Part shown: positions 30,930 through 49,170 of the stretch, piece after piece
Position numbering within the stretch: the stretch's first letter is position 1
How the letters are laid out: each line of letters opens with the position of its first letter
Virus record (IMG/VR): IMGVR_UViG_3300033741_000064
Coordinates: 1-56,042 of that record
Origin: a virus
Lineage: Duplodnaviria; Caudoviricetes
Direction: 5' to 3' (one strand)
DNA: 56,042 nt
Position numbers and translations under genes: made by a program
Notes under the pieces: model-generated
The model's input: only the letters and a program-made list of their open reading frames with translations
Told to the model about the DNA's origin: nothing
The model's database searches: none

Positions 30930-31259
30930 CTAATCTCCGATTGCAAAGCCAGTAACGCCGTCGCAACGCGAGCAGTGCGTCCGGTCGTACCAAGCTTCTT
31001 GGCTGGAGACAACAACTTCAGGATCGTCCGTGCCGCAATACCGGCAGCGAGTCCGAGCCGATACCGAGTGGTACTCGCGCTCGGCCGTTTCGTCTTCGTG
31101 AATCCACTGGCCGCTGATGCCGATCGTCTTGTCCCAGACGATCTTGTCGCCGCACTTCCAGCACCGAGCAGCAGGATCGAGGATCTCGACATCAATCGTC
31201 GGGTTCGAGCTGTAGTTCCCGGCTTGCTTGCCGGCGAAAGCTTCGAGCGTGGTAGCCAT
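30930..31259 (-). CDS. Zn-finger protein
   Basis: CWKC..H..H, CRYC, CSRC; GTTAGGAACGG leader. Confidence 0.7.
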   Translation of the reverse strand: MATTLEAFAGKQAGNYSSNPTIDVEILDPAARCWKCGDKIVWDKTIGISGQWIHEDETAEREYHSVSARTRCRYCGTDDPEVVVSSQEAWYDRTHCSRCDGVTGFAIGD

Positions 31260-31294
31260 TTTTCCGTTCCTAACTTATTGAGTTGATTTAACCT

Positions 31295-31331
31295 GTACTA
31301 CTACAGTAATACAGCTTTACTCCGGCCGCAA
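31295..31331 (-). promoter_or_regulatory. Early promoter with operator
   Basis: TTGCGG-N17-TACTGT; GTACTACTACAGTAATAC. Confidence 0.8.
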
Positions 31332-31369
31332 GTTATAGCGCTGTAATTCTTCGGGGAATTTGCCGCTGG

Positions 31370-31418
31370 AAACAACGAAAGCCCTGCAGTTCCGATTAGG
31401 GAAACCACAGGGCTCTCG
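31370..31418 (-). terminator. Terminator after protease gene
   Basis: AGCCCTG...CAGGGCT hairpin plus TTCGTTGTTT on the minus strand. Confidence 0.65.
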
Positions 31419-31426
31419 CTCTTACC

Positions 31427-32617
31427 TCACGCTGCAGATGCCGCCGCTGCATCCGGGCCGAGGTCGACCGAAACCTTCTCAGCCGTACCGCCGATGGAAT
31501 AACCGCGGATCTCGCCGGCTTCCACCAGAGGCCATGCCCAGTCCTTCCAGATCACGCCCAAGAATGGCGTGCCGGCCGGGTAGCTGTGCTTCATGAGTAC
31601 GCCGGTATCGGGATCAGGGACATCGACCTCGAGAGCCGTCCGCTGGATGTAGCCTTCCACGATTCGGCCGGCGACGATCTCCGGGTTGTGCTGGAGTCGG
31701 AGATCGCGGTCGCTGTCCGCCATGTAGTCGTGGAACGTCTTTTCCAGATCGTTCTTCTCTACCCAGTCGCCATGCGCGTCGACCATATCCGGCACGTACC
31801 AAGCGCCGAGAGTGAACTGCTCCGCCTTGTTGATCTCGAGCGACTTGAAAATTCCGGGCCGGTACGCAGACGGGCTGTTGTTCAGCCAGCCGTCGCCGGT
31901 GCTGCCGGGGCTCGTGTCGCCGTCGTAGTAGAAACCATCTTGGAAGAACGCTGCATTGTAGTGAGCGCCACCAATCGCGGCCGTCAGCTTCGAGAACCGA
32001 ACCGTCGACGACGTAACTGGGATGTCGAGGATCGACTCTCGCTGCTCGTCGGTGAGATCCTTCGGGATGCTGCCGATCGTCATGTGCGGCTGATAGAACT
32101 CGAAGTCATCACGGTAAGGGATCTCTGCGGCGTCTAGGCGACCTTTCAACACAGAGCGTAGTTCGGGGAGGCTGGTGATCTGTGCGGCGATGTAGACAGC
32201 ATCTTCGTCTTCGCCCTCGAAGATCCCGAGGCCGTTCAGCGTTCCCTCCAAGCACTTCCAGTCGCGTGCTACTTCCGTGACGATTCCGATGAGCTGCTGC
32301 TGCTGGGCAACCGTCAGCTCTTCGAGATCTCCGAGGTAGAGAACAGTGATGTGGAAATCGTTGATCGGGTTCCCGCCTGGCAGTGCATACGCCTCACCGA
32401 GATTGAACGGGACAGTCAAGGAGATCATCACTCCTTCGTGCCGGCCGATCGCGAGAGTCGAACTCCCGTCTGCGCCGTATTCGAGCTGGTAGTCGACGAC
32501 GCTGTAACCAAGCTGCTCTGCTTCCACAAGAGCCTTCGTCACGTCCTCGCCCAAGTCGTGCTGTTCGGCCAACTCGCGAGCTTTCTCAATTCGCATTGGC
32601 ATGTTGATCGTGGCCAT
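31427..32617 (-). CDS. 2H phosphoesterase (LigT/Acb1-like) fused to XkdF-like prohead protease
   Basis: Two HxT motifs (FHITVLYLG, PHMTIG); C-domain YVPDMVDAHGD..LQH..GEIRGYSIGG. Confidence 0.85.
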   Translation of the reverse strand: MATINMPMRIEKARELAEQHDLGEDVTKALVEAEQLGYSVVDYQLEYGADGSSTLAIGRHEGVMISLTVPFNLGEAYALPGGNPINDFHITVLYLGDLEELTVAQQQQLIGIVTEVARDWKCLEGTLNGLGIFEGEDEDAVYIAAQITSLPELRSVLKGRLDAAEIPYRDDFEFYQPHMTIGSIPKDLTDEQRESILDIPVTSSTVRFSKLTAAIGGAHYNAAFFQDGFYYDGDTSPGSTGDGWLNNSPSAYRPGIFKSLEINKAEQFTLGAWYVPDMVDAHGDWVEKNDLEKTFHDYMADSDRDLRLQHNPEIVAGRIVEGYIQRTALEVDVPDPDTGVLMKHSYPAGTPFLGVIWKDWAWPLVEAGEIRGYSIGGTAEKVSVDLGPDAAAASAA

Positions 32618-32883
32618 TACGTTCTCTCTTTCGGTGAAGTGGTGCAGGGTAGTTGCTCGCCGTCGAATAAGACGTTAGCAAGTCGAGCCATGTGGAACCG
32701 TCTCTGACGCGCTGAGGTCACGAGCCGGAGTATCAGTAAGGGGTTAGGCCAGAAACCGACGCTCACGATCGTCCAGCAGTCCTTACCGACGTGGTGGCCG
32801 TCAGTGAGTCGCACGACATCACGCAGATGCGGCCAATACTCGCGCTCTGCGGCAAGAGGGTTCACTGGAGTCGAGGGAGCCAT
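32617..32883 (-). CDS. Hypothetical protein
   Basis: 88-aa operon ORF. Confidence 0.55.
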   Translation of the reverse strand: MAPSTPVNPLAAEREYWPHLRDVVRLTDGHHVGKDCWTIVSVGFWPNPLLILRLVTSARQRRFHMARLANVLFDGEQLPCTTSPKERT

Positions 32884-32886
32884 GCT

Positions 32887-33090
32887 CTATACCGGGACTT
32901 CTGATTCGGGGATCAGATATAGATCATGGTCTATATCCAACTGCCACTTAGTAATCGACGGCTGAGTCATCTCGACCCACTCGGCACCATCGAGAGTCCA
33001 CTCGCGGAGGCCGTCGATGTCGTGCGTCCGCATGTAGAACCGATCGCCTAGGTCGTTCTTCCGTACGAAGAACTCTGTTGTCTCATTCAT
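32887..33090 (-). CDS. Candidate immunity protein for the MuF toxin
   Basis: 67-aa acidic/aromatic ORF directly after MuF-SAS; own TAGATT -10, AGGAGGT RBS and operator at 33126-33143. Confidence 0.6.
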   Translation of the reverse strand: MNETTEFFVRKNDLGDRFYMRTHDIDGLREWTLDGAEWVEMTQPSITKWQLDIDHDLYLIPESEVPV

Positions 33091-33149
33091 CTGATGTACC
33101 TCCTAATCTCAATCTAACACGTTTCGTATCACTACGGTAGTACGCATGG

Positions 33150-34775
33150 CTAGAAGCCGTCCGTCTGGATGCGGGGAAGCGCCGAGATGCCGTCCGGAAC
33201 CGGGATCGTGTTCGCCAGCTCCTTCATCTGCTCCGACAAGATCTCGCGCCGTAACGGATCCGGCGTCAACCGGAACTCTTCGTACAGCTTGTGCATCTCA
33301 CCGTTCTTCACGTCAAAGCTCTTCGCCGTGTGGAACTGGAGCTCTATCGGCTGACCGCTCGAGCTGACCAGCGCCGCGTTATAGCCCTGATACGGGTTCG
33401 TCTTGTCAGCCCACGCATTCTTGCCACGGATCCTGAAGCCTTCAGCTCGGAGCTGAGCAAGCGTGCTCGTGATCGTCGCCGTATATGCTGCGTCGTCGAC
33501 CATCATCGTGTACCGCAATGCGTCGCTGACTTGAGCGCCAGCCTGACCGACCGTGATGCCCTTCTCTGCAGCGTCCGTCATCAACTTCCGCTGCAACGAC
33601 TCCTGCGTCTTCAGCTTGAAATCGAGGCCGGCGAGAGATGCCTTCGCCTTGTCAGCAAGGATGCTGAGCAAGGATGTCGTGTGCGGTTCAACCGCCGCCG
33701 CTCGAGCCAACACACTCCGGGCCGTGTCGCCAGCCGCCGTATACGCCAGATCGAAGTCGTGAGCTTCCGCCTGAGTGTCGAACTGGCGCTCCATCTGCGC
33801 GATGATGTCGTCGTCCGGGGGGAGCAGTACCGCCGAGCAGCGGCAAGCCGGGTGATCCGGGGGCATATCCATGCCGTTCGGGAACGCGCCGTTCCACGGT
33901 GCAAGCATTCCGTCGAGCGCCTGGCACCGAGGGCACGCACCACTGCCGGCGATCCATTCCTTCACCGAACGGTCGTCGATAGCTCCCTGCGAGTGCATCG
34001 CTTCCCAGCCGGCATAGCGTCCCTTGTTCGCGGCCGTCACCAACTCCGTGCGTGCAATCGTCTCCGTGCGTTGCTTCAGCTTCCGCTTCGCCAGCGTCGA
34101 CGTGAGCTTGTTCGAGATCTCCGATGCCTTGTCAATCGTGCGGCCGTCAGCAATCAGGCGGGTGAACTGGTTCGCTTGATACTTCTCGAGCTGAGCTACT
34201 TGCTCCATCCGCAAGGGGATGTAGTCGCGGAGCTTGCGGCCGAGCTGGTCAACAGTGAGCGATCCCGTCAGACTCTTCGCGGTGAGCGCACGCACCGAGT
34301 TCTTCGTCGACTCAGTGATCTCTCGAATCATCTCGCCGGTACGCACTTCCGCATAAGCAATCGCGGCCGGGTCGATGACGTTCATCGCGCCAACGAGAGT
34401 CCCGGTGCCATAGTTCTCGAGATCCAGAGCAATGTCGAACGGCGTCTCCGCTTTCTGCAGCGTCTTCTTCTGGCGCACTTCTCGCTGGGCGTAGTTCTTG
34501 ATCGTGAAGCCGAGATACTTCGACGCTCGAGACATCGACTCCGCAAAGCCAACCCAGTCGAGCGAGTTCGCAACCGTGTCCGGCGAGTTGACCCGCATCC
34601 CGAACCGCACACGTTCATTATCCGACGACTCAGCGAGCAGCTCCAGCGATTCGCGCACCACACGGCCGACCGATGCCGCGTTAGCTTTCGTCAGCGGCTC
34701 TGGCTCCGCAAAGCTCCGATGCAGCAGACGCCGTGGCGTTGGATCTGAGCGCCTAACAACGTAGTCGATAGTCAT
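33150..34775 (-). CDS. MuF (SPP1 gp7-like) minor head protein fused to a RelA/SpoT-like synthetase (toxSAS-like) domain
   Basis: RTETIARTE..KEW..CPRC..PPDHPACRC, then KTQESLQRK..SDALRYT..YQGYN..ELQFHT..H.LYEEFR. Confidence 0.85.
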   Translation of the reverse strand: MTIDYVVRRSDPTPRRLLHRSFAEPEPLTKANAASVGRVVRESLELLAESSDNERVRFGMRVNSPDTVANSLDWVGFAESMSRASKYLGFTIKNYAQREVRQKKTLQKAETPFDIALDLENYGTGTLVGAMNVIDPAAIAYAEVRTGEMIREITESTKNSVRALTAKSLTGSLTVDQLGRKLRDYIPLRMEQVAQLEKYQANQFTRLIADGRTIDKASEISNKLTSTLAKRKLKQRTETIARTELVTAANKGRYAGWEAMHSQGAIDDRSVKEWIAGSGACPRCQALDGMLAPWNGAFPNGMDMPPDHPACRCSAVLLPPDDDIIAQMERQFDTQAEAHDFDLAYTAAGDTARSVLARAAAVEPHTTSLLSILADKAKASLAGLDFKLKTQESLQRKLMTDAAEKGITVGQAGAQVSDALRYTMMVDDAAYTATITSTLAQLRAEGFRIRGKNAWADKTNPYQGYNAALVSSSGQPIELQFHTAKSFDVKNGEMHKLYEEFRLTPDPLRREILSEQMKELANTIPVPDGISALPRIQTDGF

Positions 34776-34781
34776 GTTGGC

Positions 34782-34952
34782 TCAGTACGAGTTAGGGCGC
34801 TTAGAGCGCAGTGGCGGCAGGTCTGGAGGGCACTCTATATGTTCGATGAGAGCCTGACCGTCAATGATCGTCGAGATCGACGGCTGAGCGAGACGCACGA
34901 TCAGTCCGCACTTCTTGCACTTCCCGAGTGGCATCGTCATCACACCAGTCAT
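34782..34952 (-). CDS. 56-aa CxxC..HxxC Zn-binding protein (not in ORF track)
   Basis: MTGVMTMPLGKCKKCG...EHIECPP; TGATG overlap with the portal stop. Confidence 0.55.
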   Translation of the reverse strand: MTGVMTMPLGKCKKCGLIVRLAQPSISTIIDGQALIEHIECPPDLPPLRSKRPNSY

Positions 34953-36328
34953 CACAGGCCGCGCGTTTCAGAATCCGAGTTCCGCTTCGGCGCCTTGATC
35001 AGATCGCGACCCCAATCCTCGAGGTTGTCGTCCGGGGTAAGCATTCCCGCGTCGGTAAGGATCTTCAGGAACGGGCCGAGAGCGCCGAGGTCGACGCGGT
35101 TGATCTCGCCAAACACGAACTTCGGTGTGCGCCGGGGCGTCATGCCGTTGAACTCAAGGAGCTGCGGCGACGCGAACCTGTCGAACACAGTCGAGATCGA
35201 CTTCGCAATAGCCGAGACGCTCAGCGTCCACAGGTCAATCTTCGTCACACCGAGAGAGCGTGAGCCGTTCTCTTCGTGACCGAGCATCAGGAAGTCAGCC
35301 AGCACCGACATTGCGATCTCAGCATTCTTCCGCGTGACCGCTTCACCGAGATTGATCTGACGTGCGCCGCCCGACGTAATCAAGTCGATCGAGAACGTCT
35401 TGTTCTTATCTTGGTCGTACAGAGCAGGGATCACAGCACCTTCCGACTCACCACGGCGGAGAGACTTCGCCAGCGTGATCGCCGTCTGCAGAGACTTCTT
35501 CTGATCTGCCGTCGCGTCGGCCGTGTGCCATACAGCGGGAGTAGTGACCACCGGGTAGCCGGCAAGCTCACGCTCAATGCCAATCGCTTCGTACTCTTCG
35601 ATGCGCGTCTTGAAGAACCACGGCCGGTACGCCGTCCGCAACAGCGAGCGACCTTCAGGGTTGTTCTTGTTCTGAGTGATCCGGAACAGGAGAGCCTTCT
35701 TCAGCGGGATCTCGAACGTGCCGAGGTTCGTCTGCTGCACCATGCCAGTCACGTTCTCGTGCTGGTCGAGCTGCCACCGAAGAAGCGACTGCTGGCCACG
35801 GTGCGCAAACTTGCGCCACCCGATACGTCCGTCGTCAAACTTCGACTTGTACGAGCCGTCCTTCTGCTTCGTGCCGCGCCGGATCTTGTAGACGACCTCG
35901 AAGTACGACCAGCCATAAACCGCGAACGTCAAGATCTCTTCAAGCACCTGATCCCACGGCTGGCTCATATCTTCGAGACACTCGTTCAGGAAGTCCGTCG
36001 CTGCCAGCTCTTCATCGTCGGCATCTTGCGGTGCCTCGAACTTCCACTCGAGCTTGCCGATCATCTGGTTCAACGCGAACAGGAACGCGCCAACCATTCC
36101 GTCGTTCTCCGACATCTGCTTGAAAATTCGTTGGCCACGGTAGCCAGTCAGCTCAGGGAGCAGCTCTTCCATAACCGTGCCGCCAGAGATCTGAAGACCA
36201 CTAGCACCGAACTCCTGCAGACCAGCCGGCTTCTCAGCATCGACCGCTTCTTGCGCGGCGGCTTCAGTCGGGGTAACGCTCGTCGCGTCCAGCTCGGATG
36301 ACTTTGCGATGTCGCTCTTCTTCGCCAT
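34952..36328 (-). CDS. Portal protein (DUF935/Mu gp29-like)
   Basis: NNPEGRSLLRTAYRPW..EAIGIERELAGYP; position after TerL. Confidence 0.9.
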   Translation of the reverse strand: MAKKSDIAKSSELDATSVTPTEAAAQEAVDAEKPAGLQEFGASGLQISGGTVMEELLPELTGYRGQRIFKQMSENDGMVGAFLFALNQMIGKLEWKFEAPQDADDEELAATDFLNECLEDMSQPWDQVLEEILTFAVYGWSYFEVVYKIRRGTKQKDGSYKSKFDDGRIGWRKFAHRGQQSLLRWQLDQHENVTGMVQQTNLGTFEIPLKKALLFRITQNKNNPEGRSLLRTAYRPWFFKTRIEEYEAIGIERELAGYPVVTTPAVWHTADATADQKKSLQTAITLAKSLRRGESEGAVIPALYDQDKNKTFSIDLITSGGARQINLGEAVTRKNAEIAMSVLADFLMLGHEENGSRSLGVTKIDLWTLSVSAIAKSISTVFDRFASPQLLEFNGMTPRRTPKFVFGEINRVDLGALGPFLKILTDAGMLTPDDNLEDWGRDLIKAPKRNSDSETRGL

Positions 36329-36367
36329 GTGTATTACTCCAGTGTCGCCGGTCGTCTTACTCAGGTA

Positions 36368-36410
36368 AGTCTATGCCCGACACACAGGTAACACGAAGGG
36401 CTGACACGCC
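36368..36410 (-). promoter_or_regulatory. Late-type promoter
   Basis: GGCGTGTC-N29-TAGACT. Confidence 0.6.
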
Positions 36411-36422
36411 CACGACACGATG

Positions 36423-36550
36423 GAGCCCGGAGCAGGTCTACCTCAGCCGAGTAATTTGATCTTCGCAGTTCAATCGGCTTCATGGGCGCCTTCGTCAAGA
36501 CAGTTACAGACGTTCACTCCGGGCTCTTCATCACCTTGGCACTCGTGATG
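36423..36550. ncRNA. Candidate structured RNA between terL and portal
   Basis: 10-bp closing helix GAGCCCGGAG/CTCCGGGCTC enclosing further helices; adjacent CATCAC/GTGATG hairpin. Confidence 0.35.
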
Positions 36551-36556
36551 TTTCGA

Positions 36557-38326
36557 CTATAGCGCGACGAAGCCAGCAGAGTCACTGCCCGATGTCGAAT
36601 CGCTGGGAGCTCCACTCGAGCGCAGTACCGAACTCGACGACGTGCCACTGGAGATGATGATCGGGGCCACGTCGTAGAACTCGTGGATCTCGTCTGGCTC
36701 ATACCACGCCATGATGATGCCGTCAGCGCGGTCACCTGAACGGATGCCGCGCTTCAGCATGGATGCCTTCGGTTCGATCTTGATCTTGCCGCGTGCGTCT
36801 TCGCCGTACTTCGGCGCGTTCATCTGGGCAACCGTCTTGTCGTCCACGTCGAGGATGATCGAACGTTGGCCGTGAGAGTCAGCCATGACAGCTTTCCGCA
36901 TTGCCCACCACATCTCGTCGCGGACGTTCGTGAAGTGAACCACGTCACGCGGGAGACTGCCGGCCTTGACCTCAAGGAACACGACGCCGGCGATGCCACC
37001 CTGCGAGACGGGCAGCTCAGACAGGCGCTTCAGATCACCGTAGATATGCCAGCCGAGGCCGAGGCTGTCTACTTTCGCACGCACAGGGGCACTGATGCCT
37101 CGCTTCTTGTGCTCCGCTGCAGCCCATCTAGCCCACTTCGCACACACAGACACGACGTACTGAGAGTCTCGATGTCGCTCGTCAACACGGCCATACTTCG
37201 TCGTCGCTACACCAGTGTCTATCGCGGCGATCACGAACTCGTCACTCATGCCGCCAGCGATGTCCATGCCGAGCTGGATCTCTCCACCAGTCGGGACAAC
37301 GAAGTCATCTTCGACCTCGCCGTTCTTCTTACGCGGCAGCCTGGCCGCTTCGAGCCACATGATCGGCAGGGTCTTCGACTCGTTGCTCTTCGGGAACTGT
37401 GCGTCACGCCGGGCAATGACAACCGCGGATTCTTCACCGTACTCGTCGACGAGATCTTGCACGTAGTCAGCGTCAATCAGGTGCGACGCGACCGTGTGCG
37501 GCTCCATGCCCTTGTGCGATCGGCAGAGCCCGAGATCTTCGCCGGTGAAGTTCGGTGTCTTGCTGTAGGGAATCGGGATGACGTTGAACAGATCCGTGCG
37601 CTCACACTGCTTCTCGAACCACGAGCCTTCGTCGTCGATCGGCGGGTTCCCGATGAGCAGTAGCCGAGTGTGCGAACCAGTCAGCAGACCGAGCAGACCA
37701 CGGCCGAACAGGTGCGAGATGCCGCCAGCTTCGTCGACAACAATCAGGACGTGCGGTGCGTGCATTCCGGAGAGCGCTGCTTCATCCTCGTCCGGAGGCT
37801 TGATACCTTCCGCGACTAGCTCACGGTTGCCGCCAGTGTCGATGTACCACTCGACCATGTTCATCGTGCCCGGTAGTCCGTGCGCGGCGTGGACGTTGCG
37901 GATGTACGGCCACAGCACGTTTCTCACTTGCCGGAAAGTCGTGGCCGTCGTCAGGATACGGGCGGTGCCGGCCGGATGCACTGAGCCCCACCAAGCGATG
38001 ATTCTGGCCGCGATGTGCGACTTGCCGGGAGCGTGGCACGCCGGTACTGCCGTGCGCTTGTTGTCGCGCACTGAAGTCATGATCTCGCGCTGCAGCGACC
38101 ACGCGATCTCGTCTAAGCCTTGCGGGGATGTGACGAAGCCAACCGGATCATTCACGAACGACAGGTACGGGTTCGACTTCCGTTCTTCCATCATGGCCAC
38201 GAGCTTGTTCCGCTCGTTCTGGCTCAGTGCCTTGTAGAACTCTGATCGCTGGTCTGGAGTCATCGCCTTCAGCCGAGTGAAGATGTCCGGCTTCCTAGCC
38301 GGTGCCTTCTCTTCGGTCAAACTCAC
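36557..38326 (-). CDS. terL: Terminase large subunit
   Basis: ACHAPGKS Walker A, LIVVDEA Walker B, IGNP, GMDIAGG, SGDRADG. Confidence 0.95.
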   Translation of the reverse strand: MSLTEEKAPARKPDIFTRLKAMTPDQRSEFYKALSQNERNKLVAMMEERKSNPYLSFVNDPVGFVTSPQGLDEIAWSLQREIMTSVRDNKRTAVPACHAPGKSHIAARIIAWWGSVHPAGTARILTTATTFRQVRNVLWPYIRNVHAAHGLPGTMNMVEWYIDTGGNRELVAEGIKPPDEDEAALSGMHAPHVLIVVDEAGGISHLFGRGLLGLLTGSHTRLLLIGNPPIDDEGSWFEKQCERTDLFNVIPIPYSKTPNFTGEDLGLCRSHKGMEPHTVASHLIDADYVQDLVDEYGEESAVVIARRDAQFPKSNESKTLPIMWLEAARLPRKKNGEVEDDFVVPTGGEIQLGMDIAGGMSDEFVIAAIDTGVATTKYGRVDERHRDSQYVVSVCAKWARWAAAEHKKRGISAPVRAKVDSLGLGWHIYGDLKRLSELPVSQGGIAGVVFLEVKAGSLPRDVVHFTNVRDEMWWAMRKAVMADSHGQRSIILDVDDKTVAQMNAPKYGEDARGKIKIEPKASMLKRGIRSGDRADGIIMAWYEPDEIHEFYDVAPIIISSGTSSSSVLRSSGAPSDSTSGSDSAGFVAL

Positions 38327-38419
38327 TGGTGGCTCCTAGACGGCTGTTTACGGTGTGGCGGGTGAACTTGTATGCGCTCGAGCTTACAGACAGCGGAGAC
38401 GGGCGCCGGGCAGCGGAGA

Positions 38420-38866
38420 CTAGCTCTCTGGTCGTGCGGGGATCGTCAGTACCGTGCAGTTCGTCCACCGGCACACGTCAACCGCGTGCGGCCCGTACTG
38501 GATGTACCAGACATTCTGCTCGATGTAGCGATCCTCAGCGGTGAGCGTCTCTTCATACGCGAGTTCAGCAAGCCACTCTTCATCCGTGGTGCCGAACTCT
38601 GCGCGGTGCTCGATCAGATAGCCGGTGCTCTCATGCGACAGCTCCTTCGCGTACATCGTGTCCATCACGAAGACTTGCTCGCCAACCTGCGGCGCGTGCA
38701 TCCGGTCGAAGACTTCAGGGCCACGCGAATCAAAAGCAGCTTTATGCAGCAGTGCGCCATAGAGCGCGGGGTAGATCGCCGTGAGTGCTGCCTTGCCGGA
38801 GACAGTCAGCAGATAATCGGCCGGATCTCTCTCGACGCCGGTAATGCCTTCACGCGGTTGCTTCAT
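38420..38866 (-). CDS. Hypothetical protein
   Basis: AGGAACGGAAC leader. Confidence 0.7.
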   Translation of the reverse strand: MKQPREGITGVERDPADYLLTVSGKAALTAIYPALYGALLHKAAFDSRGPEVFDRMHAPQVGEQVFVMDTMYAKELSHESTGYLIEHRAEFGTTDEEWLAELAYEETLTAEDRYIEQNVWYIQYGPHAVDVCRWTNCTVLTIPARPES

Positions 38867-38881
38867 GATCTCGTTCCGTTC

Positions 38882-39259
38882 CTAGTAGATGATATTGCGA
38901 TCAGGCGCCGGCCGGGGAGCTGGAGCCTGGCTCTTCTGCGGCGCAGCTTTCGTGCGCTCCTGCCGGCGAACCGACTCAACTTCATTGCGTGCTGCATCCT
39001 GCTCACGCCGCAAATCTTCTTCCGGATCCACCGGGGGCGCTTCATGCTTGCGTGGAGCTGCAACCAACGAGTGCTCACGGCCGCTCTCATCCGTAAACCA
39101 GCTCTCGCCACCAGTCTCCCAATAGATCCCAAACTTGCCGGCAAGACCGATATGCGCTCCGAGATGATCCTCAAACAGATCACAGCCAACCGCGTCCATC
39201 CCCAGACCGAGACTCTCAACGCTCTTCCTCGCACGGCAATCACGACGCGGCTTAGCCAT
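38882..39259 (-). CDS. Hypothetical protein
   Basis: Start MAKPRRDC just after the terS stop; C..C...H..H motif. Confidence 0.6.
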   Translation of the reverse strand: MAKPRRDCRARKSVESLGLGMDAVGCDLFEDHLGAHIGLAGKFGIYWETGGESWFTDESGREHSLVAAPRKHEAPPVDPEEDLRREQDAARNEVESVRRQERTKAAPQKSQAPAPRPAPDRNIIY

Positions 39260-39919: not shown

Positions 39920-40375
39920 CTAGCTCCTATCGCCGGAGCGGTAGCGCGCGTGTAGCTTGCGGCGGCTCTCTTCGCTGTTGCGGCGGATCGCTTCGTTGAT
40001 CGTCGCTTGTGATGCCGGCGAGAGCGTTGGGGGAAGGTCGCCAATGATGTTTCGGTGAATCATCGGTTTCAGGCCGGTGCGGAGCAGGGGGAGATCTTCG
40101 ATGATGTCTGCGGGTACGTCAATGAGTCCACAGGCGTCTCCATCTGTGAACTCTGGTTGCTTGCAAGCTTTCTCAACGGTGCGCGTCATCTCGCGATATG
40201 CGTTCAGTTGCGCCGTCATCTGCTCTGCGATGTCCGCGAATATCTGGAGGACTCTATCTAGTGCGTCAGCCAAATTCTTCGCGTTGATGGTTTCGCGTGG
40301 TTGTTTGCCAGCCGTGGCCGCAATCTCCAGCTCTTCCTTCAGGTTCTTCGCCCGTTCATCTTCTTGCTTGTTCAC
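39920..40375 (-). CDS. Hypothetical protein
   Basis: GTG start after GAAGGAG overlapping the upstream stop. Confidence 0.6.
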   Translation of the reverse strand: MNKQEDERAKNLKEELEIAATAGKQPRETINAKNLADALDRVLQIFADIAEQMTAQLNAYREMTRTVEKACKQPEFTDGDACGLIDVPADIIEDLPLLRTGLKPMIHRNIIGDLPPTLSPASQATINEAIRRNSEESRRKLHARYRSGDRS

Positions 40376-40806
40376 GATAGCTCCTTCACGCTCTGCTTGG
40401 CAAGCTCTAACTGATCGTACGCTGCCTTCCAACGAGCGCGGCCGGTTGCCGTGGAGTGATGTGTGGCTAGGTCGCTGAAACAGGCGGAGAGCGCTGCTGA
40501 GGCGTAGGGATCGCGTGCCTGGCCGACTCGCCATGCGTAGGGAGCGTCAGGTTCTCTCGGTAGACGTGCGGCAAGGGCGACAGCTCGAGTGACGCGCACA
40601 CCGAACTTTGCTTCGATCGTGCCGGCGTGAACGTGCGTCTCGTCAATGTGATGCAGCCAGCCGGTGATCGTCGTCAGCTCGTCGGCCGCTGGGAGCAGTA
40701 GGCCAGTGACGCGCTCGAGATGCGCGAACAGCGGTTCGTCTTCCAAGAAATCATGTTCCCGGTGGAGATGGTTCACCCAAGCTCGTGCCCGATCAGTTGC
40801 GCCCAT
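40372..40806 (-). CDS. Degenerate HD-domain protein (pseudo small alarmone hydrolase-like)
   Basis: ARAW...H..EPLFAHLERV..GWLHHIDET..I..KFG..V..AV; HDxxED replaced. Confidence 0.65.
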   Translation of the reverse strand: MGATDRARAWVNHLHREHDFLEDEPLFAHLERVTGLLLPAADELTTITGWLHHIDETHVHAGTIEAKFGVRVTRAVALAARLPREPDAPYAWRVGQARDPYASAALSACFSDLATHHSTATGRARWKAAYDQLELAKQSVKELS

Positions 40807-42456: not shown

Positions 42457-43191
42457 CTACTCAGCCTCCTTCTCAGCCTTGATTCCGGCGTCGACGTAAT
42501 CCATGATCTTCACCATGATCCCGGCAATGTTGCGGATGTCCTTGAGCTGGCCGACAGTCTTCACCGTCTTCGAGAAGCGATCGAAGTCCTCATGGTTCGC
42601 GAGATACATCCGCGCATCCGGCTCGAGACGTTCGATCAGATGCTCCCAGCGGTCAAGGTTGCTCGACATAAACAGCACGTAGATCGGCTCGAAGTCGAAC
42701 TCGACGTCCAGAGATTCTGACGGCCACGAACCAACGTCGAGCCTCATATCCATGTCGGACAGGCCGGACTCGAGCTTGGCTTCCGTGCTCTCCATCGAGT
42801 CGAAGAGCTGACGCAGAATATCTAAGTCGTCCTCGCCCGAGAGCGCGTTATGCGCGAGCTGCTTCGCGGTGATCTCGTCCTCTGTGAGATCTCGCTCAAT
42901 GACGATGCAGTGGATGATCATCAAGCCGGCCGTGCGAGCTGCTCGAGTTCGGTGATGACCGGACAGGATCGCAAAGAAATCTGGCTGGTCTGGAATCAAA
43001 GCCACGAGCGGCAGAGACTCCAGCCGGCTCTCAGCGCCGATGTTCGTGGCAAGCCTCGCGAACTTGTCCGGGCTCATCACACGCGCGTTCACATCACGCT
43101 CACGCAGTCGATCCAGATGCACTTTCCAGATCGCTAGACCCGGCGATAGCTCTAGGAGTCGTTCAGGCTTTGGTACGTCGTTCCTCGACAA
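42457..43191 (-). CDS. ParB/Srx-like N-domain protein (DNA-modification-associated type)
   Basis: NARVM....F..L..NI...ILSGHHRTRAA..QLAHNALSGEDD; TTG start after GAGGAAG, overlapping the upstream gene. Confidence 0.85.
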   Translation of the reverse strand: MSRNDVPKPERLLELSPGLAIWKVHLDRLRERDVNARVMSPDKFARLATNIGAESRLESLPLVALIPDQPDFFAILSGHHRTRAARTAGLMIIHCIVIERDLTEDEITAKQLAHNALSGEDDLDILRQLFDSMESTEAKLESGLSDMDMRLDVGSWPSESLDVEFDFEPIYVLFMSSNLDRWEHLIERLEPDARMYLANHEDFDRFSKTVKTVGQLKDIRNIAGIMVKIMDYVDAGIKAEKEAE

Positions 43192-44587
43192 AGGCTTCTT
43201 CCTCTCGAATAAACCGCTCGACAACATCCTTGAAAGTGTCGTCGCGGAAATCTGCCACCATCCGGAGCTTGTAGTTCCCGTCTGGCTGTACTTCTCGGTG
43301 ATCCACCGTGTAGATCCCGTTCGTTGCTTTGCTCTTCCGGTAGCGGCTGAAGATCGTCGTCTTGATCCCACGGATCTTCCAGTACCGATTCTGCCGAGCC
43401 AACGCCCGAAGGTGCGGCGCGAACGCTTGCGACGTGATCAGCAGGTTCAACAGCCGAGACGTACGCGGGTAGACATCACTCGGAACCGTGAAGCCGGAGT
43501 TCAGGAACGCATACTCATCGACCAACCGCATCACCGGCGACATCATGAACATCAACATGCCGAACACCTTGCCGTCGATCAGAATCAAGCCGTACCACTC
43601 GTTGCCCGAAGGGACTCCGAGACGGTGCGCAAACAGGTCGCGGTAGTAGTACGCCACTTCCGGCGTCGTCGTGATCACACGCACGTCTGAGTCGGCCGTC
43701 ATCACGTCAGTCGCACCCCAGATTCGGGCGTCGAGTGGCCTCACGTTCTTCCGTGCAAACGACTTCACACCGTACTTGTGGATAAACCCGTCGAGCACTG
43801 CCGGCCGCGTGCAAAGCCAGTGCGTCACCGTGTGCGGCTTTTCCTCGATCGAGTAGATGATGTCTTCATCCTTGAAATTCTCGACCGACTTCTCGCGATA
43901 CCAGAAGAACGCCGCCTCCGAGATCTGCGACAGCTCGTAGAGCCGGGTGAAGTTCTTGTTCATATCGAGCGGCTCAACGCCAGCGTCGTACTCGATGACA
44001 TCCTCGAAGTCGAAGATCTTGTCGTCGCTATACAGCGGCGGATTGATCACCACCACCGTCTGATCGTCGTACTCCTTCGCAACAGCGTCACGGAGATCCT
44101 CGTGCTCATAGCGGATGCCGGCGTACCGCTTCACCATCGCCTCGACCTGAGTGAGCAGTCGCTCCACATGCACCTGAAAGTGTGCGTCGAGATCCTCGAC
44201 CTCCGCGTTCCGGTAGTGGAGTTTCGCGAGCTGCGTGCGCTTCATGAGCCACAACACGAACGCGACTCTCACGTCACCACGTTCCCTGTCGAGCGTGAGC
44301 GTCTCGTACAGCACCTCAAACTCTGGGGTGATGACGTAGGAAGGTTTCGGGTTATCTTCGCGTAGAAGACTGCCTACGAGGGCGGAGAACAGGGAAACAT
44401 CCGAGACGGTGATGTTCTCACGCTCGTATCCGGCAACAATCGCGCTTAGCACGAGGTTGAACTGACCAACAGCCGGCACCACTAGCTTCGGCCTGGCTTT
44501 CAGAGTGTGTCCCAGAGCGAGGGCGAGAAACTGCCGACTCGGGCCTTTCGTCACCCCTAGAAATATGGGATCTTTCGTGCGAGCCAC
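43163..44587 (-). CDS. Adenine-MTase-like / GNAT-like fusion (putative DNA base-modification, antirestriction enzyme)
   Basis: Degenerate motif I LVVPAVGQF, motif IV VVINPPLY; C-domain YYRDLFAH..LIDGKVFGML..RTSRLL..IKTT..SRY; GTG at 44587 after GGAGGT. Confidence 0.7.
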   Translation of the reverse strand: MARTKDPIFLGVTKGPSRQFLALALGHTLKARPKLVVPAVGQFNLVLSAIVAGYERENITVSDVSLFSALVGSLLREDNPKPSYVITPEFEVLYETLTLDRERGDVRVAFVLWLMKRTQLAKLHYRNAEVEDLDAHFQVHVERLLTQVEAMVKRYAGIRYEHEDLRDAVAKEYDDQTVVVINPPLYSDDKIFDFEDVIEYDAGVEPLDMNKNFTRLYELSQISEAAFFWYREKSVENFKDEDIIYSIEEKPHTVTHWLCTRPAVLDGFIHKYGVKSFARKNVRPLDARIWGATDVMTADSDVRVITTTPEVAYYYRDLFAHRLGVPSGNEWYGLILIDGKVFGMLMFMMSPVMRLVDEYAFLNSGFTVPSDVYPRTSRLLNLLITSQAFAPHLRALARQNRYWKIRGIKTTIFSRYRKSKATNGIYTVDHREVQPDGNYKLRMVADFRDDTFKDVVERFIREEEAFVEERRTKA

Positions 44588-44615
44588 TCTTACCTCCGTC
44601 CCGTTGTACGGACGG

Positions 44616-44687
44616 TGGATGCGGGAGCCAGACTTGCACTGACATCTGAACGCAGGAAGCGCCCCATATTGGTTATACGACCCCGCA
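44616..44687 (-). tRNA. Non-canonical tRNA-Gly(UCC)-like RNA
   Basis: TGCGGGG TC GTAT AACCA ATAT G GGGCG CTTCCTG CGTTC AGAT GTCAG TGCAAGT CTGGC TCCCGCA T CCA: four paired stems, TCC anticodon, U73, encoded CCA. Confidence 0.8.
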
Positions 44688-44705
44688 ATGTGCGCCGCAG
44701 TCCCC

Positions 44706-44735
44706 AGTATAGGGGGAGCGCTGAAGTCATAGCAA
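44706..44735 (-). promoter_or_regulatory. SigA-type promoter for the tRNA/modification operon
   Basis: TTGCTA-N18-TATACT, 18 nt upstream of the tRNA 5' end. Confidence 0.65.
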
Positions 44736-45020
44736 CACCGCAACAATGCCGTCTTTCTGGTTCTCGAAGATCGCACCGCAGCAAGCAGACTTCCACCTTT
44801 TTACCCGAGGGCTCAAGCCCGACTGAGAATCCCACTGGGCAAGATGCAGCTTGCAGATATGACCGGCAAGAGCCGAGCAGCTCGAGCAGATCATCGCCGC
44901 TGCCGCTGGCTCGCCGCAATATGTCGGCACCATCTTCAGCGTTCGCGGGTCGAGTATCCGGATCTCACAGTTAGGTGTCTCCCCGGTGAGTTCCTCGAGA
45001 GACTCAGGCTCAGTCATCAT
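44727..45020 (-). CDS. Cys/His-rich Zn-binding protein
   Basis: NCEI..YCGEPA..ICSSC..HICKLH..ACC. Confidence 0.65.
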   Translation of the reverse strand: MMTEPESLEELTGETPNCEIRILDPRTLKMVPTYCGEPAAAAMICSSCSALAGHICKLHLAQWDSQSGLSPRVKRWKSACCGAIFENQKDGIVAVLL

Positions 45021-45526
45021 GGCGCTATCCACTGGTTCTTCCGAATCTTCGGGAACGACACAACATCCATATCGAACATCCCCTGCTCAGCAATCGGCTT
45101 CGGCGGGGTAGCTCGTGGAGATGAGTTCGCAAGCAGCTCGCCCGTCCACATGATATGCACAACGTCGAGGCCGCGCTCTTCCAGCGGAGGGGTCAACATC
45201 GTGAACCGATGACATCCCTTGAAGTGGCCCTCAGAGCAGCAGATCGCAATCCGCTCACCGCTCTCCGCTCGCACCTTCAGATCGTCGAGCGCCTTCTCGT
45301 AGTCGACGTTCTCACCCTTGCCGCCGAGGTTCTTGCCACGCGACACATAATGGATCCCGACCTTGCGGAGCTCTATCTTCAGCGCGTTCTCGTTGAACTG
45401 TGGGTTATACCGCGACCACGGCACCGAACGCACATCAACCAGCACGCTGATGTCGGCCGCTGTCAGCAGCTCAATGAAGCTCTCCACTGGCTTGTTCGAG
45501 TGTCCAACCGTAAATATTTCAGTCAT
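45017..45526 (-). CDS. DUF488-family protein
   Basis: IFTVGHSN..LVDVRS.P.SR..PQFN..LGG..CCSEG....CHR. Confidence 0.88.
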   Translation of the reverse strand: MTEIFTVGHSNKPVESFIELLTAADISVLVDVRSVPWSRYNPQFNENALKIELRKVGIHYVSRGKNLGGKGENVDYEKALDDLKVRAESGERIAICCSEGHFKGCHRFTMLTPPLEERGLDVVHIMWTGELLANSSPRATPPKPIAEQGMFDMDVVSFPKIRKNQWIAP

Positions 45527-46026: not shown

Positions 46027-46292
46027 AACTGGCCTCCCTTAGCTCTCTCCATGAGGTTGAGCACATGCCGCACGCCCTCATCTGCGTTGATACTCTCCAG
46101 CTCTTCTATCGTGCCGGGCCGCAACGCAAAGTCGCCGTCGATGAGAGTGAAGAGCGCGATGCCGCCACAGTTGAAACAGATCGAGACAGCGCCCTCATCT
46201 GGCAACTCGTTATCGTCCGTCACGCTCGTTGAGCCCACAAGCTGCTCGTTACAGCTCAAGCAAAACACGTTGTTCAAGTCGGTGCTGTTCAT
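46023..46292 (-). CDS. Zn-ribbon protein
   Basis: CLSC..CFNC. Confidence 0.65.
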   Translation of the reverse strand: MNSTDLNNVFCLSCNEQLVGSTSVTDDNELPDEGAVSICFNCGGIALFTLIDGDFALRPGTIEELESINADEGVRHVLNLMERAKGGQL

Positions 46293-46756
46293 GGCCAAAC
46301 TCCATTCTCGAGGTACTGGATCGCTCTCAGGTACTTTTCCTTAAGTCGCTCCTGCACGCTGGGCAAAAGCAGCTTCAAGCGTTCCGGGTCGAGGTTGTCA
46401 GCGATGTCCGCGATCTTCACCTGCATCGCATCCGGGTTCTTGCGAATCGCACCGTAATACCCGTCGAGCGACTGGCCTGGCTTCTTCGTTACCAGCTTTA
46501 CCGCGTCCACGGTGCGCTGCGAGAAACCAAGATCGAGCAGGTCTTCTGCTGTAGCTGGAGTGTCCTCAACCACGTCGTGCAAGTAGCCGGCCGCGACAAC
46601 CGCATCGTCCATGCCCAGCTTCCGCAACGAACGCGCCACACGAGCCGGGTGATAGAAATACGGCTGACCTGCCTTATCAATCTGACCGCGATGCACGAAG
46701 TTCGCAAAGCCAGCGGCCACAGCCACTACCGAGATCTCGTTTATCTCTTCATCCAT
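46289..46756 (-). CDS. HD-domain small alarmone hydrolase (SAH/Mesh1-like)
   Basis: A...HRGQ.DKAG.PY..HP..V; AAGYLHDVVEDT; VKIADIADN; start MDEEIN. Confidence 0.9.
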   Translation of the reverse strand: MDEEINEISVVAVAAGFANFVHRGQIDKAGQPYFYHPARVARSLRKLGMDDAVVAAGYLHDVVEDTPATAEDLLDLGFSQRTVDAVKLVTKKPGQSLDGYYGAIRKNPDAMQVKIADIADNLDPERLKLLLPSVQERLKEKYLRAIQYLENGVWP

Positions 46757-47324: not shown

Positions 47325-48905
47325 TTACTGCTTAGCGATTACCTTGCGAGCAACCAGCAGTGCCGAACCGATTGCCAGCATAATCGCTGCCGCAATTCCG
47401 AACGGTGTGAGATCCATGCCGGTGTAAGGGAGCACGTCTGCCTTAGCAATCGGCGCTCGATCCACTACTGGAGTGACCGGCTCTTCAGGCTCTTCAGGAA
47501 CAACGACCGGGCAAGCCTCGTCGGTGAACTCGATAGTCTGCACCAGCTCGAAGTCGCCTGAGAAGACGAAGCCGTCTACGGCAACTGCCGTGAGAACGAC
47601 GGTGCCTTCGCCAGCATAGGTGCCGGCATCAACAGTCTCGCCGTCAATCTGCCAGACGTACCCATCAGTTTCAGGAACGGTGTAGGTGTCATCTTCGACC
47701 CCGCACTTGTCCACCGATTCGATGACTGCGATCTCGTTGATCTCAGTGGGGCAGACATTCTCAGCCTGTTCCTCTTCGGTCAGATCTCGTTCGCGAGTCT
47801 TCTCCTTGACGACGGCGTTCTCAGTGTCGAGCACCCACTCGCCCTCAACCAAGATGTACGGCGTCTTGGTTACGGTACGAGTTTGAGCAACCGTAGTTGC
47901 ATCGCAGTCGTAAGTTCCGTCGACCCAAGGGGTTCGCACAACGTTGATCGGCGGCTGTGAACCGTAGCCCCACGTATCCGAGAAGCAATCACTGGACACG
48001 CTCTTCAGGAGAACTGAAACGTCGGCGTTAGAGCCTGAGTCGGTTCCGAGGAAGAAGAATCGCAGTGTGTTGTTCGGGTAATACGCCGCCCACTCGTCGA
48101 GAGTCTGAGCGACCCGCGATCCGTTCGTCAGCTTGCCGCTCGCGATAGCCGAGCCGTCTACTGGCCCTTCACTCACGACCGTCATGCTGTTATAGCTCGA
48201 GCCACCGTCAGCGCTGGAGTCGATCACGATTCGAGGGTAGAACTTGCTGAGGCTATACGCATCAGCTTCCACGTCGTAACTGATCGTCGGGAGCCCTTGC
48301 AGGTTCCCTCCAATTCCGATACCGACTCCCATCGCGTCGTTGACTCCACCAACAAACAGAAGCCCGTTCTCGTTCTCTGTGGGAGCAGTGTCGTCGCCCT
48401 CAGTGAACCAGTCACCCCAAGTAACGATGCACTCTTTAGGGCCAACCGGAACGGGGTCGCACTCCACGGCTTCGTGCTCGATGTAGCTGTCGGGCACCTC
48501 GATAACCGCTTCAGTCACGAGGACTTCTTCAGTGATCTCAGGAGTTGCTTCGAGGTAGAACCATGAGCCACGACCTTCGTTGCCCTCGCCCTGCCGATAA
48601 GCGCCTTCGACTCCGATCTTGTGCGGGTCGCCAGCTACGTTGGCTTGCCACTCAGCGCCGGGGAATGCAGGAGCTTCTACGCTCTGCCCACCCGTCCACG
48701 AGTAGCGCTGCCAACCGGCCTCTGTCACAACGACGGTTTCATAAACAGCGTCCGCGCCGGGAGTGCCGGTAACGGTTTCTGTCCATGCGTCCGAAGGGAC
48801 ACAGGGCTCCGGGGTGCTGGTGGTCGCTGTAGCGGCACCCGCTCCGGATAGTGCCAGCCCTACGGCCAGCAGAGCGGTCGTACAGACCGCAATGAATTTC
48901 TTCAC
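47325..48905 (-). CDS. Secreted, sortase-anchored (LPYTG) cell-surface protein
   Basis: Signal peptide MKKFIAVCTTALLAVGLALSGAGAATA; C-terminal LPYTG + TM + RK tail; GTG after GGAGG. Confidence 0.88.
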   Translation of the reverse strand: MKKFIAVCTTALLAVGLALSGAGAATATTSTPEPCVPSDAWTETVTGTPGADAVYETVVVTEAGWQRYSWTGGQSVEAPAFPGAEWQANVAGDPHKIGVEGAYRQGEGNEGRGSWFYLEATPEITEEVLVTEAVIEVPDSYIEHEAVECDPVPVGPKECIVTWGDWFTEGDDTAPTENENGLLFVGGVNDAMGVGIGIGGNLQGLPTISYDVEADAYSLSKFYPRIVIDSSADGGSSYNSMTVVSEGPVDGSAIASGKLTNGSRVAQTLDEWAAYYPNNTLRFFFLGTDSGSNADVSVLLKSVSSDCFSDTWGYGSQPPINVVRTPWVDGTYDCDATTVAQTRTVTKTPYILVEGEWVLDTENAVVKEKTRERDLTEEEQAENVCPTEINEIAVIESVDKCGVEDDTYTVPETDGYVWQIDGETVDAGTYAGEGTVVLTAVAVDGFVFSGDFELVQTIEFTDEACPVVVPEEPEEPVTPVVDRAPIAKADVLPYTGMDLTPFGIAAAIMLAIGSALLVARKVIAKQ

Positions 48906-48960
48906 ACTTTCCTCCTTCTTACCTCTCCGGGCGCCGGGTGACGCTCGCGGAATACCATCG

Positions 48961-49170
48961 CTACTTGCGACGGAAAATATAGACAACTGCGCCGCTGCCG
49001 GCGAGTCCATAGCCGACGAAAGCCAGCCCGTTTACTTCGACCGTGCCGCTGACTGAGTAAGCGAACAGGATGCCGATACCGACCAGCATCGCGACGAAAC
49101 CAGCAACCGCGTCGAGCCGGATGTGAATTGTCTCCGGCTCGGCGGTGAGTGGCTCGAGCTTGCGGCCCAT
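48961..49170 (-). CDS. Small 2-TM membrane protein
   Basis: Two hydrophobic helices and an RRK tail. Confidence 0.65.
   Translation of the reverse strand: MGRKLEPLTAEPETIHIRLDAVAGFVAMLVGIGILFAYSVSGTVEVNGLAFVGYGLAGSGAVVYIFRRK

Follow-up and report, generated by a model that had tools for sequence, protein, structure and literature searches.

Does the head-gene cluster of an uncultured tailed phage encode a RelA/SpoT-fold toxin, which nucleotide would such an enzyme make, and what would protect the infected cell from it? These questions are raised by the IMG/VR record IMGVR_UViG_3300033741_000064 (Duplodnaviria; Caudoviricetes), whose 56,042 bases, 93% complete by estimate and without end repeats, form the window analysed in this study. 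A sequence-only reading had proposed a MuF head protein fused to a RelA/SpoT-like domain resembling the toxic small alarmone synthetases (toxSAS), with an adjacent immunity gene; the two open reading frames (ORFs) that it named, of 541 and 67 amino acids (aa) on the minus strand, are both present, at 33150-34775 and 32887-33090. We regard it as fairly probable that the window carries an Apk2-type MuF toxin with a 67-aa inhibitor and a separate Aph1-type hydrolase. The architecture, the homology to characterised enzymes, the intact catalytic residues and the Aph1 signature behind this explanation are observed directly. The features on which the argument turns are as follows.

33150-34775, minus strand: MuF-SYNTH fusion gene, 541 aa, Apk2-like polymorphic toxin (ORF and translation)
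33831-34112, minus strand: MuF / SPP1 gp7 domain, residues 222-315, with the cysteines CPRC...HPACRC (PF04233)
33177-33728, minus strand: predicted C-terminal SYNTH (alarmone synthetase) toxin domain, residues ~350-533 (8vx3, phrog_7625, XopAD)
32887-33090, minus strand: 67-aa acidic ORF, candidate IapK/Tis1-like immunity protein (position, size, predicted fold)
46292-46756, minus strand: Aph1-type small alarmone hydrolase (SAH), predicted (p)ppApp hydrolase and unlinked second antidote (HD_4 above cut-off)

The fusion protein and its synthetase domain

The head-protein part of the proposal was confirmed, as Phage_Mu_F (PF04233) matches residues 222-315 of the 541-aa protein at E 1.2e-10 with 42.6 bits (cut-off 29.6), and the gene comes after the portal gene. 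The MuF domain is also matched by TIGR01641 phageSPP1_gp7, at 32.3 bits and under the cut-off of 39.65, and the MuF part by phrog_16493 and other PHROGs families. With SPP1 gp7 the protein has in common the MuF domain and the place beside the portal gene, but gp7 is without a toxin domain and the 541-aa protein has one. All five motifs quoted earlier, PPDHPACRC, KTQESLQRK, SDALRYT, YQGYN and ELQFHT, were found in the translation. On these data, the prediction that a MuF minor head protein carries a RelA/SpoT-fold synthetase as its toxin domain is supported.

As a single sequence, the C-terminal domain matches the PDB chain 8vx3_A ('SaSAS', SaEAS) over residues 350-533 at E 1.2e-21 with 80.7 bits (phmmer), and the profile of its family finds SaEAS at 8e-39 and Tas1/Apk1 at 0.039, with no further chain up to E 1. 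Residues 355-532 match phrog_7625, a 'head morphogenesis' family, at E 3.9e-33, and therefore MuF-synthetase fusions already stand among the phage protein families. Within the XopAD effector model (NCBIfam), the match of the domain (E 3e-31) is confined to the C-terminal ~190 positions, in keeping with the observation that Rel-like domains form the end of some XopAD proteins (PMC12691689). One result speaks against the assignment, namely that Pfam RelA_SpoT (PF04607) gave no match at E<=10, either to the domain alone or in a six-frame search of the record. Since this model misses the domain, the synthetase assignment rests on the similarity to SaEAS, XopAD, PHROGs and Apk2; the Apk/EAS clade has altered syn motifs relative to the forms in RelA/SpoT homologue (RSH) enzymes.

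The active site of SaEAS is preserved, with D121, R124, N169, E182 and Q184 corresponding to the identical residues D418, R421, N466, E478 and Q480 of the phage protein; the 8VX3 crystal carries D121A, and it is this A that pairs with phage D418. SaEAS K154 aligns with an R in the phage domain, at the sole catalytic column that is not invariant in an alignment of 14 relatives. Invariant in these relatives (full-length numbering) are K389, S393, K397, D418, R421, Y422 and T423, as well as Y462, G464, N466, E478, Q480, H482 and T483. The four synthetase motifs among the five quoted, KxxxSxxxK included, sit on these invariant columns and were thereby borne out. There are strong grounds for assigning the domain to the Apk/EAS clade, as a predicted RelA/SpoT-fold nucleotide 3'-pyrophosphokinase with its catalytic residues intact.

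A tblastn search with the C-terminal domain against 50,697 deposited phage records disclosed it in 128 of them, from phages of Ralstonia (84), Streptococcus (35), Pasteurella (3), Mannheimia (2), Haemophilus (2) and Aggregatibacter (2), and no actinobacteriophage was among these records. The identities to the Apk2 toxins of Streptococcus, Mannheimia and Aggregatibacter prophages are 30-38%, with 38.1% to the MuF proteins of S. pneumoniae prophages and 34.7% to a Mannheimia phage. RYT in syn2, GxN in syn3 and YH in syn4 are reported to set Apk apart from the guanosine RSH enzymes (PMC12226406), and the phage domain has all three signatures, in the forms LRYT, GYN and FH. Both parts of Apk2, the MuF N-terminus and the Apk-type C-terminus, stand in one polypeptide. 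Judged by its sequence, the 541-aa protein is a member of the Apk2 family of MuF-fused (p)ppApp synthetase toxins and not of the PhRel/CapRel tRNA type.

The PhRel-type action on tRNA that the sequence-only reading had also considered became less likely with these results. Structures of tRNA-modifying toxSAS are present in the PDB, yet the only chains matched, by the single sequence and by the family profile at E 1 to 10, are SaEAS and Tas1, and because the profile finds these two alone the domain is placed in a nucleotide-pyrophosphokinase clade. The characterised relatives with detectable similarity all act on free nucleotides, and a phage-encoded Aph1-type nucleotide hydrolase would be useless against modified tRNA. 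A tRNA 3'-CCA pyrophosphokinase (PhRel/CapRel/FaRel2-like) that blocks translation directly would share the RelA/SpoT fold superfamily; PhRel is indeed encoded by an actinobacterial phage (PMC12691689), and the syn motifs do not reveal the product (PMC12226406). We nevertheless hold such an enzyme to be very improbable here and retain the Apk2 assignment.

A further point against the explanation is that the relatives differ in product, and sequence alone cannot name the nucleotide that would be made. The Apk2 proteins of B. caccae, S. pneumoniae and M. haemolytica are toxic and make (p)ppApp only (PMC10083569, PMC12226406), SaEAS makes both alarmones, and VpEAS and AaEAS make only (p)ppGpp (PMC12691689). 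The product is not readable from the motifs because swaps of the syn motifs left Apk2 specificity unchanged (PMC12226406), and because SaEAS, which shares RYT, GxN and FH with the phage domain, is promiscuous. It is thus conceivable that the domain makes (p)ppGpp only, as VpEAS and AaEAS do, or both alarmones, as SaEAS does, causing a stringent-response-like shutdown in which (p)ppApp is not the main product; the motifs common to SaEAS, the promiscuity of this only solved relative and the two (p)ppGpp-only members of the wider family (PMC12691689) would agree with this. Against it, (p)ppApp is all that the MuF-fused members tested so far (S. pneumoniae, M. haemolytica, B. caccae) produce, the domain scores 123 bits against Apk2 (tblastn) compared with 80.7 against SaEAS (phmmer), though the programs differ, and the co-encoded hydrolase keeps D24 and R119, the guanosine-excluding residues. 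We consider the (p)ppGpp alternative unlikely, and an Apk2-type (p)ppApp synthetase remains the preferred assignment.

The 67-aa gene as an immunity candidate

With reference to the related loci, what usually follows such a toxin gene was investigated in a set of 84 loci, consisting of the best 80 of 393 relatives confirmed in a pattern scan of genome_contigs, two IMG/VR loci and two phage records. An ORF of 40-110 aa that starts within 60 nucleotides (nt) of the toxin stop was noticed in 64 of the 84 loci, though a few of these ORFs are plainly spurious frames. Of the 65 small ORFs, the 67-aa ORF being counted among them, 51 are gathered by an iterative hidden Markov model (HMM) that started from the IapK ORF of S. 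pneumoniae; the 67-aa ORF and that of the Microbacterium locus described below (L009) were excluded from the building of the model. A conserved IapK-type gene right after the toxin is the rule among related loci. Streptococcus phage phiARI0460-1 carries a 69-aa ORF 2 nt after the MuF gene and then a hydrolase, and Aaphi23 has a 72-aa ORF behind its MuF gene. Small ORFs of four other loci (L022, L029, L038 and L058; Myxococcales, Polyangiales, Apibacter) are weakly recognised by the IapK HMM (E 0.0045-0.63) and may form a second divergent immunity group, like the 67-aa ORF.

The acidity claimed for the small gene product was borne out, with 15 D+E against 6 K+R and an isoelectric point of 4.31. 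Its AlphaFold2 model, built from two sequences with a predicted local distance difference test score (pLDDT) of 84.5, displays four strands (4-10, 17-24, 27-34 and 37-40), a helix (48-53) and a strand (57-60). The corresponding model of the IapK family (30 sequences, pLDDT 92.2) has strands at 4-11, 17-26, 29-36 and 39-42, a helix at 45-50, a strand at 57-59 and a helix at 61-73, so that the order of the elements is the same in both models and their positions are nearly the same. The lists of the top 50 BFVD neighbours of the two models share 7 targets, and ranks 1 and 2 of the IapK model are ranks 6 and 4 for the 67-aa model. In the ESM Atlas, the two nearest clusters (69-aa, phage or bacterial) carry Tis1_ImmP, with scores of 0.84 and 0.82 and 188 and 185 of 256 features; scores below 0.9 are leads only, and 0.8 is reached by shuffled proteins in one third of cases. 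The closest toxin, with 48% identity and the same terL-portal-MuF order, comes from an uncultured Microbacterium metagenome-assembled genome, L009, whose downstream ORF displays REWRLDDGHWVEV where the 67-aa protein has REWTLDGAEWVEM, sharing REW-LD--WVE at E 5e-5 in a single comparison.

Several results weigh against an IapK-type identity, among them the shuffled proteins that limit the Atlas scores. The IapK-family HMM gives the 67-aa protein E 0.92 in a database of 65, and the L009 ORF 2.4; hhalign gives a probability of 7.5% (P 0.0047) in one set-up, and 0.8% (E 0.07) for the other alignment pair. The C-terminal helix (61-73) of the IapK family is absent from the 67-aa model, and a Foldseek comparison of either model with the PDB and BFVD left no match at E<=0.001. 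When the sequences of the 67-aa protein and of S. pneumoniae IapK were compared with those of the PDB, nothing meaningful came up, and BLASTP of the 67-aa protein reached only E 1.2 against the ORF in the iapK position of phiARI0460-1, with no alignment to ORF43 of Aaphi23. The 67-aa protein has no match in Pfam (E<=10), PHROGs or NCBIfam. The Tis1_ImmP model (PF24154) found nothing in the 56,042-base record, as in all of five records that include the Streptococcus phage with iapK; because this model misses even the record with the validated S. pneumoniae IapK, little can be concluded from HMMs that fail.

Relatives of the 67-aa protein itself are scarce. A word-indexed search returned the protein itself and one relative at 85%, and an identical 67-aa protein is found on a 58,065-base contig. 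HMMER against 1.84 billion representatives gave six proteins at E<=0.001, of which we credit a single one, a relative of 67 aa; the remaining five are 705-4082 aa long, their matches being short, repeated and numerous, and are regarded as spurious. A complex prediction of the toxin domain (14 rows) with the 67-aa protein (2 rows) was run without controls and returned ipSAE values of 0.01 and 0.00, where the mark is 0.32; it speaks neither for nor against binding.

Two further stretches bear on the expression and divergence of the small gene.

33091-33149, minus strand: 59-nt gap with AGGAGG before the small gene, without a promoter or terminator call
32617-32883, minus strand: 88-aa ORF of unproven coding status between the small and protease genes, with a TAATG overlap with the next gene

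The sequence-only reading had given the small gene its own -10, a strong ribosome-binding site and an operator. The ribosome-binding site is real, as AGGAGG lies 8 nt ahead of the ATG; the -10 was not upheld, as a sigma-70 scan of 31000-39000 gave one site against 2.0 expected, that site lying outside the gap. As for the operator, the sole candidate is a 5+1+5 palindrome, ACTACCGTAGT, which is short and occurs exactly once; with <=1 mismatch it has 3 matches, a count reached by 2 of 100 shuffles. No terminator-like site was detected on the minus strand of 31000-39000. With no promoter-like site detected in the gap, no operator supported and no terminator-like site on this strand, it is simpler to suppose that the 67-aa gene is co-transcribed with the head genes. 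The 88-aa ORF belongs to no family in Pfam, PHROGs or NCBIfam and has no relative beyond itself.

A metagenome contig, L089, is 98% identical across 1001 aligned bases, with the differences clustered as follows.

67-aa gene: 21 of 204 nt differ, 19 of them in codons 35-61
Toxin gene: 20 of 1284 nt differ
59-nt gap: 0 differences
88-aa ORF: 1 of 267 nt differs

Between the two copies of the 67-aa gene, the ratio of non-synonymous to synonymous rates (dN/dS) is 0.31 (9 synonymous and 12 non-synonymous differences), which supports the translation of this ORF, and its dN is about 11 times that of the toxin. The toxin domains are 99% identical, and therefore the divergence of the small gene is not classical toxin-immunity co-variation; this pattern partly favours another partner for the 67-aa protein. 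The differing codons form a hypervariable patch (32910-32990, minus strand; L089 1445-1525) between flanks that are 98-100% identical. L089 is the only close relative found, and in this one pair the patch could reflect recombination or rapid evolution in an arms race.

The claim of an immunity gene is therefore upheld in part: place, size, charge, predicted topology and the Atlas lead agree with it, and the HMM (E 0.92) and hhalign (0.8-7.5%) do not. It could be argued instead that the 67-aa ORF encodes a small late protein of another, unrelated kind, such as an accessory of head assembly or an anti-defence factor, and that protection comes from Aph1 or from autoinhibition by the MuF part, or is needless in a lytic cycle. 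Such a protein would explain why no significant sequence link to IapK was obtained, why only one relative was met among 1.84 billion representatives, why the last IapK helix is missing and why the 3' half of the gene diverges strongly from L089 beside a toxin that is 99% identical, and full-length Apk2 is in fact reported as less toxic than the isolated domain (PMC10083569). It does not account for the small ORF at this place in 64 of the 84 loci, 51 of the small ORFs being of the IapK family, nor for the common predicted topology with 7 shared neighbours among the top 50 in BFVD, nor for the Atlas clusters that point to Tis1_ImmP; given the silence of the Tis1_ImmP model in all five records, that of the validated IapK included, HMMs that fail lend it little support. 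We treat this alternative as a tentative one with appreciable weight, and consider it moderately probable that the 67-aa protein is the immunity protein of the toxin domain.

The hydrolase, its gene block and the phage

The SAH to which the sequence-only reading alluded was located in the window and is, by similarity and signature residues, of the (p)ppApp-specific Aph1 type. A six-frame search with HD_4 found two places in the record, 46292-46756 and 40372-40806. The product of the first shares 41% identity (E 1e-30) with the 'metal-dependent phosphohydrolase' in the Aph1 position of phiARI0460-1, and its best PDB match is 7smg, the (p)ppApp hydrolase Aph1, at 7e-24, compared with 1e-13 for the best (p)ppGpp enzyme. 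The Aph signature consists of D24, R96, D116, R119, K133 and Y134, of which D24 and R119 exclude (p)ppGpp (PMC10083569). Five of the six residues (D24, D116, R119, K133 and Y134) are kept, and R96 is replaced by A, which is a point against the assignment. The presence of an enzyme predicted to be of the Aph1 type lends indirect but specific support to the production of (p)ppApp during infection. The second place, a minus-strand ORF of 144 aa, reaches 22.7-23.7 bits, under the cut-off, and has HHIDET at the HD motif; it was rejected as Aph1, having no PDB match and no Aph1 similarity, and is possibly an inactive or divergent SAH paralogue.

The hydrolase gene lies 11.5 kb upstream of the toxin in the direction of transcription, among non-structural genes. 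An SAH-like ORF was observed in 21 of the 84 toxin loci, and in all 21 it stands directly downstream of the toxin or of the small ORF, so that an unlinked hydrolase is unusual and weighs against the proposed system. The flanks examined reach up to 4-6 kb, and the other 63 loci could hold unlinked SAH copies beyond them; aph1 is reported as 'sometimes absent' in the Apk2 family (PMC10083569). The neighbours of the hydrolase are a DUF488 protein (45017-45526, minus strand), a fusion of phage DAM-like and phage GNAT-like domains that is probably concerned with DNA modification (43163-44776, minus strand), and an LPXTG protein just upstream of the Aph1-type gene. This last, of 561 aa (47325-49010, minus strand), combines a hydrophobic segment at the N-terminus with a C-terminal LPYTG and membrane anchor (Gram_pos_anchor E 0.0018, under the cut-off), and would be a sortase-anchored surface protein.

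The head genes around the toxin comprise the following.

36557-38326, minus strand: large terminase (terL), upstream of the portal gene
34952-36328, minus strand: portal (Portal_Mu E 2.8e-37)
34782-34955, minus strand: 57-aa ORF between the portal and MuF genes, overlapping the portal stop
31427-32617, minus strand: 396-aa fusion of a 2H phosphoesterase with an XkdF-type head protease (Pfam and PHROGs matches)

The genes appear to run on the minus strand, because the long ORFs of the plus strand overlap those of the minus strand and the GC skew is negative across the whole record; the order is terL, portal, 57-aa ORF, MuF fusion, 67-aa ORF, 88-aa ORF and protease. The 57-aa ORF displays CKKC...HIEC, a possible zinc ribbon, and no family match was found for it. 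In the protease, Peptidase_S78_2/XkdF covers residues 265-382, the N-terminus matches 2_5_RNA_ligase2 (E 4.5e-11) with the HxT motifs FHITV and PHMTI, and the full fusion matches phrog_14859 at E 6e-76. 2H enzymes include phage nucleases that act against the cyclic-oligonucleotide-based anti-phage signalling system (CBASS), and it may be of note that a capsid-associated 2H phosphodiesterase adjoins the gene of a putatively packaged nucleotide toxin.

The best identity of the terminase is 46%, to terminases of Arthrobacter phages, and by phage host its matches (148 records) include Microbacterium (33), Arthrobacter (29) and Streptomyces (22). These relatives, together with the LPXTG-like anchored protein, suggest that the host is probably an actinobacterium of the Micrococcales.

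With regard to lifestyle, the definition of Jamet et al. 2017 assigns MuF polymorphic toxins to temperate phages or prophages. A search of the 93%-complete record for the domains of tyrosine integrases, serine recombinases and large serine recombinases (PF00589, PF00239, PF07508) gave no match; the record does contain YqaJ and RecT genes. One end of the record is cut inside a gene, and the contig with the identical 67-aa protein is 58,065 bases long, so that ~2 kb may be missing and an integrase may lie outside the record. An integrase-less MuF-toxin phage would be unusual. It could nonetheless be imagined that this is a virulent actinobacteriophage using a capsid Apk2 as a weapon of host takeover or competitor exclusion, with its antidotes split in time: Aph1 in the upstream non-structural block could clear (p)ppApp made by the injected enzyme, and a fast-evolving, truncated IapK-like inhibitor could be co-expressed late with the toxin. 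We put this forward as a doubtful proposition. If it were true, MuF toxins would no longer be restricted to temperate phages, as they are reported to be, a first clue to their role in the lytic cycle would be at hand, and the phage would offer a tractable system for the role of a virion-borne (p)ppApp synthetase in lytic infection; if the phage is not virulent, the locus is one further Apk2 module with a divergent immunity protein.

Proposed course of infection and known systems

The product, its toxicity, the binding of the 67-aa protein, packaging and injection are what we infer for the preferred explanation, an Apk2-type toxin with two antidotes; the delivery by the virion and the block of host translation suggested in the sequence-only reading are likewise conjectures. 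Late in infection, the MuF-toxin would be made together with the 67-aa inhibitor, which, judging from Tis1 and IapK, would block the acceptor site; the Tis1 immunity protein is reported to act by occluding that site (PMC12226406). The MuF part may then bind the portal and bring a few copies into the procapsid, an expectation that follows from the portal binding and DNA binding reported for SPP1 gp7 (PMC10083569). In the next infection, the toxin may enter with the DNA, as was hypothesised earlier (PMC5576092, PMC10083569), make (p)ppApp from ATP and depress host metabolism. Its C-terminal domain would move pyrophosphate from ATP to the 3'-OH of ATP or ADP, giving (p)ppApp and possibly also (p)ppGpp, and this synthesis would drain ATP until growth stops. 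The Aph1-type hydrolase would destroy (p)ppApp and limit the damage, and its site among the non-structural genes would permit an expression timing unlike that of the toxin. Whether MuF toxins are packaged or injected, and why phages carry them, are described as open questions in PMC10083569 and PMC12226406.

This study acknowledges that the kind of system is already described as Apk2/IapK/Aph1, to which the phage adds a member. MuF toxins with a RelA-like domain were first predicted in 2017, and their characterisation as Apk2, together with IapK/Tis1 and Aph1, dates from 2023 onward (PMC10083569, PMC12226406), 89 Apk2 sequences have been reported, those of Actinomycetota included (PMC12226406), and a 2025 survey counted 39 SPP1/MuF-bearing sequences among the EAS-like synthetases (PMC12691689). 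Three modest features are peculiar to the phage system: its immunity candidate is divergent and truncated, its hydrolase gene is unlinked, and no integrase was found. Our search of the literature on Apk2/IapK/Aph1, MuF toxins and SaSAS, within the text that it covered, met no Apk2 in a virulent phage and no unlinked aph1. The genome therefore contributes an Apk2 member from an apparently integrase-less phage akin to those of Arthrobacter and Microbacterium.

Comparatively, the PhRel/CapRel/FaRel2 toxSAS are also RelA/SpoT-fold toxins with adjacent antitoxins, some of them phage-encoded (PMC12691689), but they pyrophosphorylate tRNA, are not MuF-fused and gave no sequence match to the phage domain in the PDB searches. 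Apk1/Tas1-Tis1, a type VI secretion system (T6SS) effector from P. aeruginosa (PDB 6OX6), has the same fold and chemistry as predicted here, with a weak profile match (E 0.039) and barely detectable sequence similarity, and is delivered by a PAAR/T6SS domain in place of MuF. SaEAS of Streptomyces albidoflavus (PDB 8VX3, PMC12691689) is the best solved relative, with conserved active-site residues. From the characterised Apk2/IapK/Aph1 systems, the phage differs in a toxin domain that is only 30-38% identical, in a small ORF that is unrecognised by the IapK HMM and without the last helix, in an aph1 that is 11.5 kb off in another gene block and not adjacent, and in a probably actinobacterial host with no integrase found in the 93%-complete record. 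On the other hand, it displays with them the same MuF-Apk fusion directly after the portal gene, a ~70-aa acidic ORF immediately downstream, the signatures RYT, GxN and [Y/F]H, and an Aph1-type hydrolase in the same genome.

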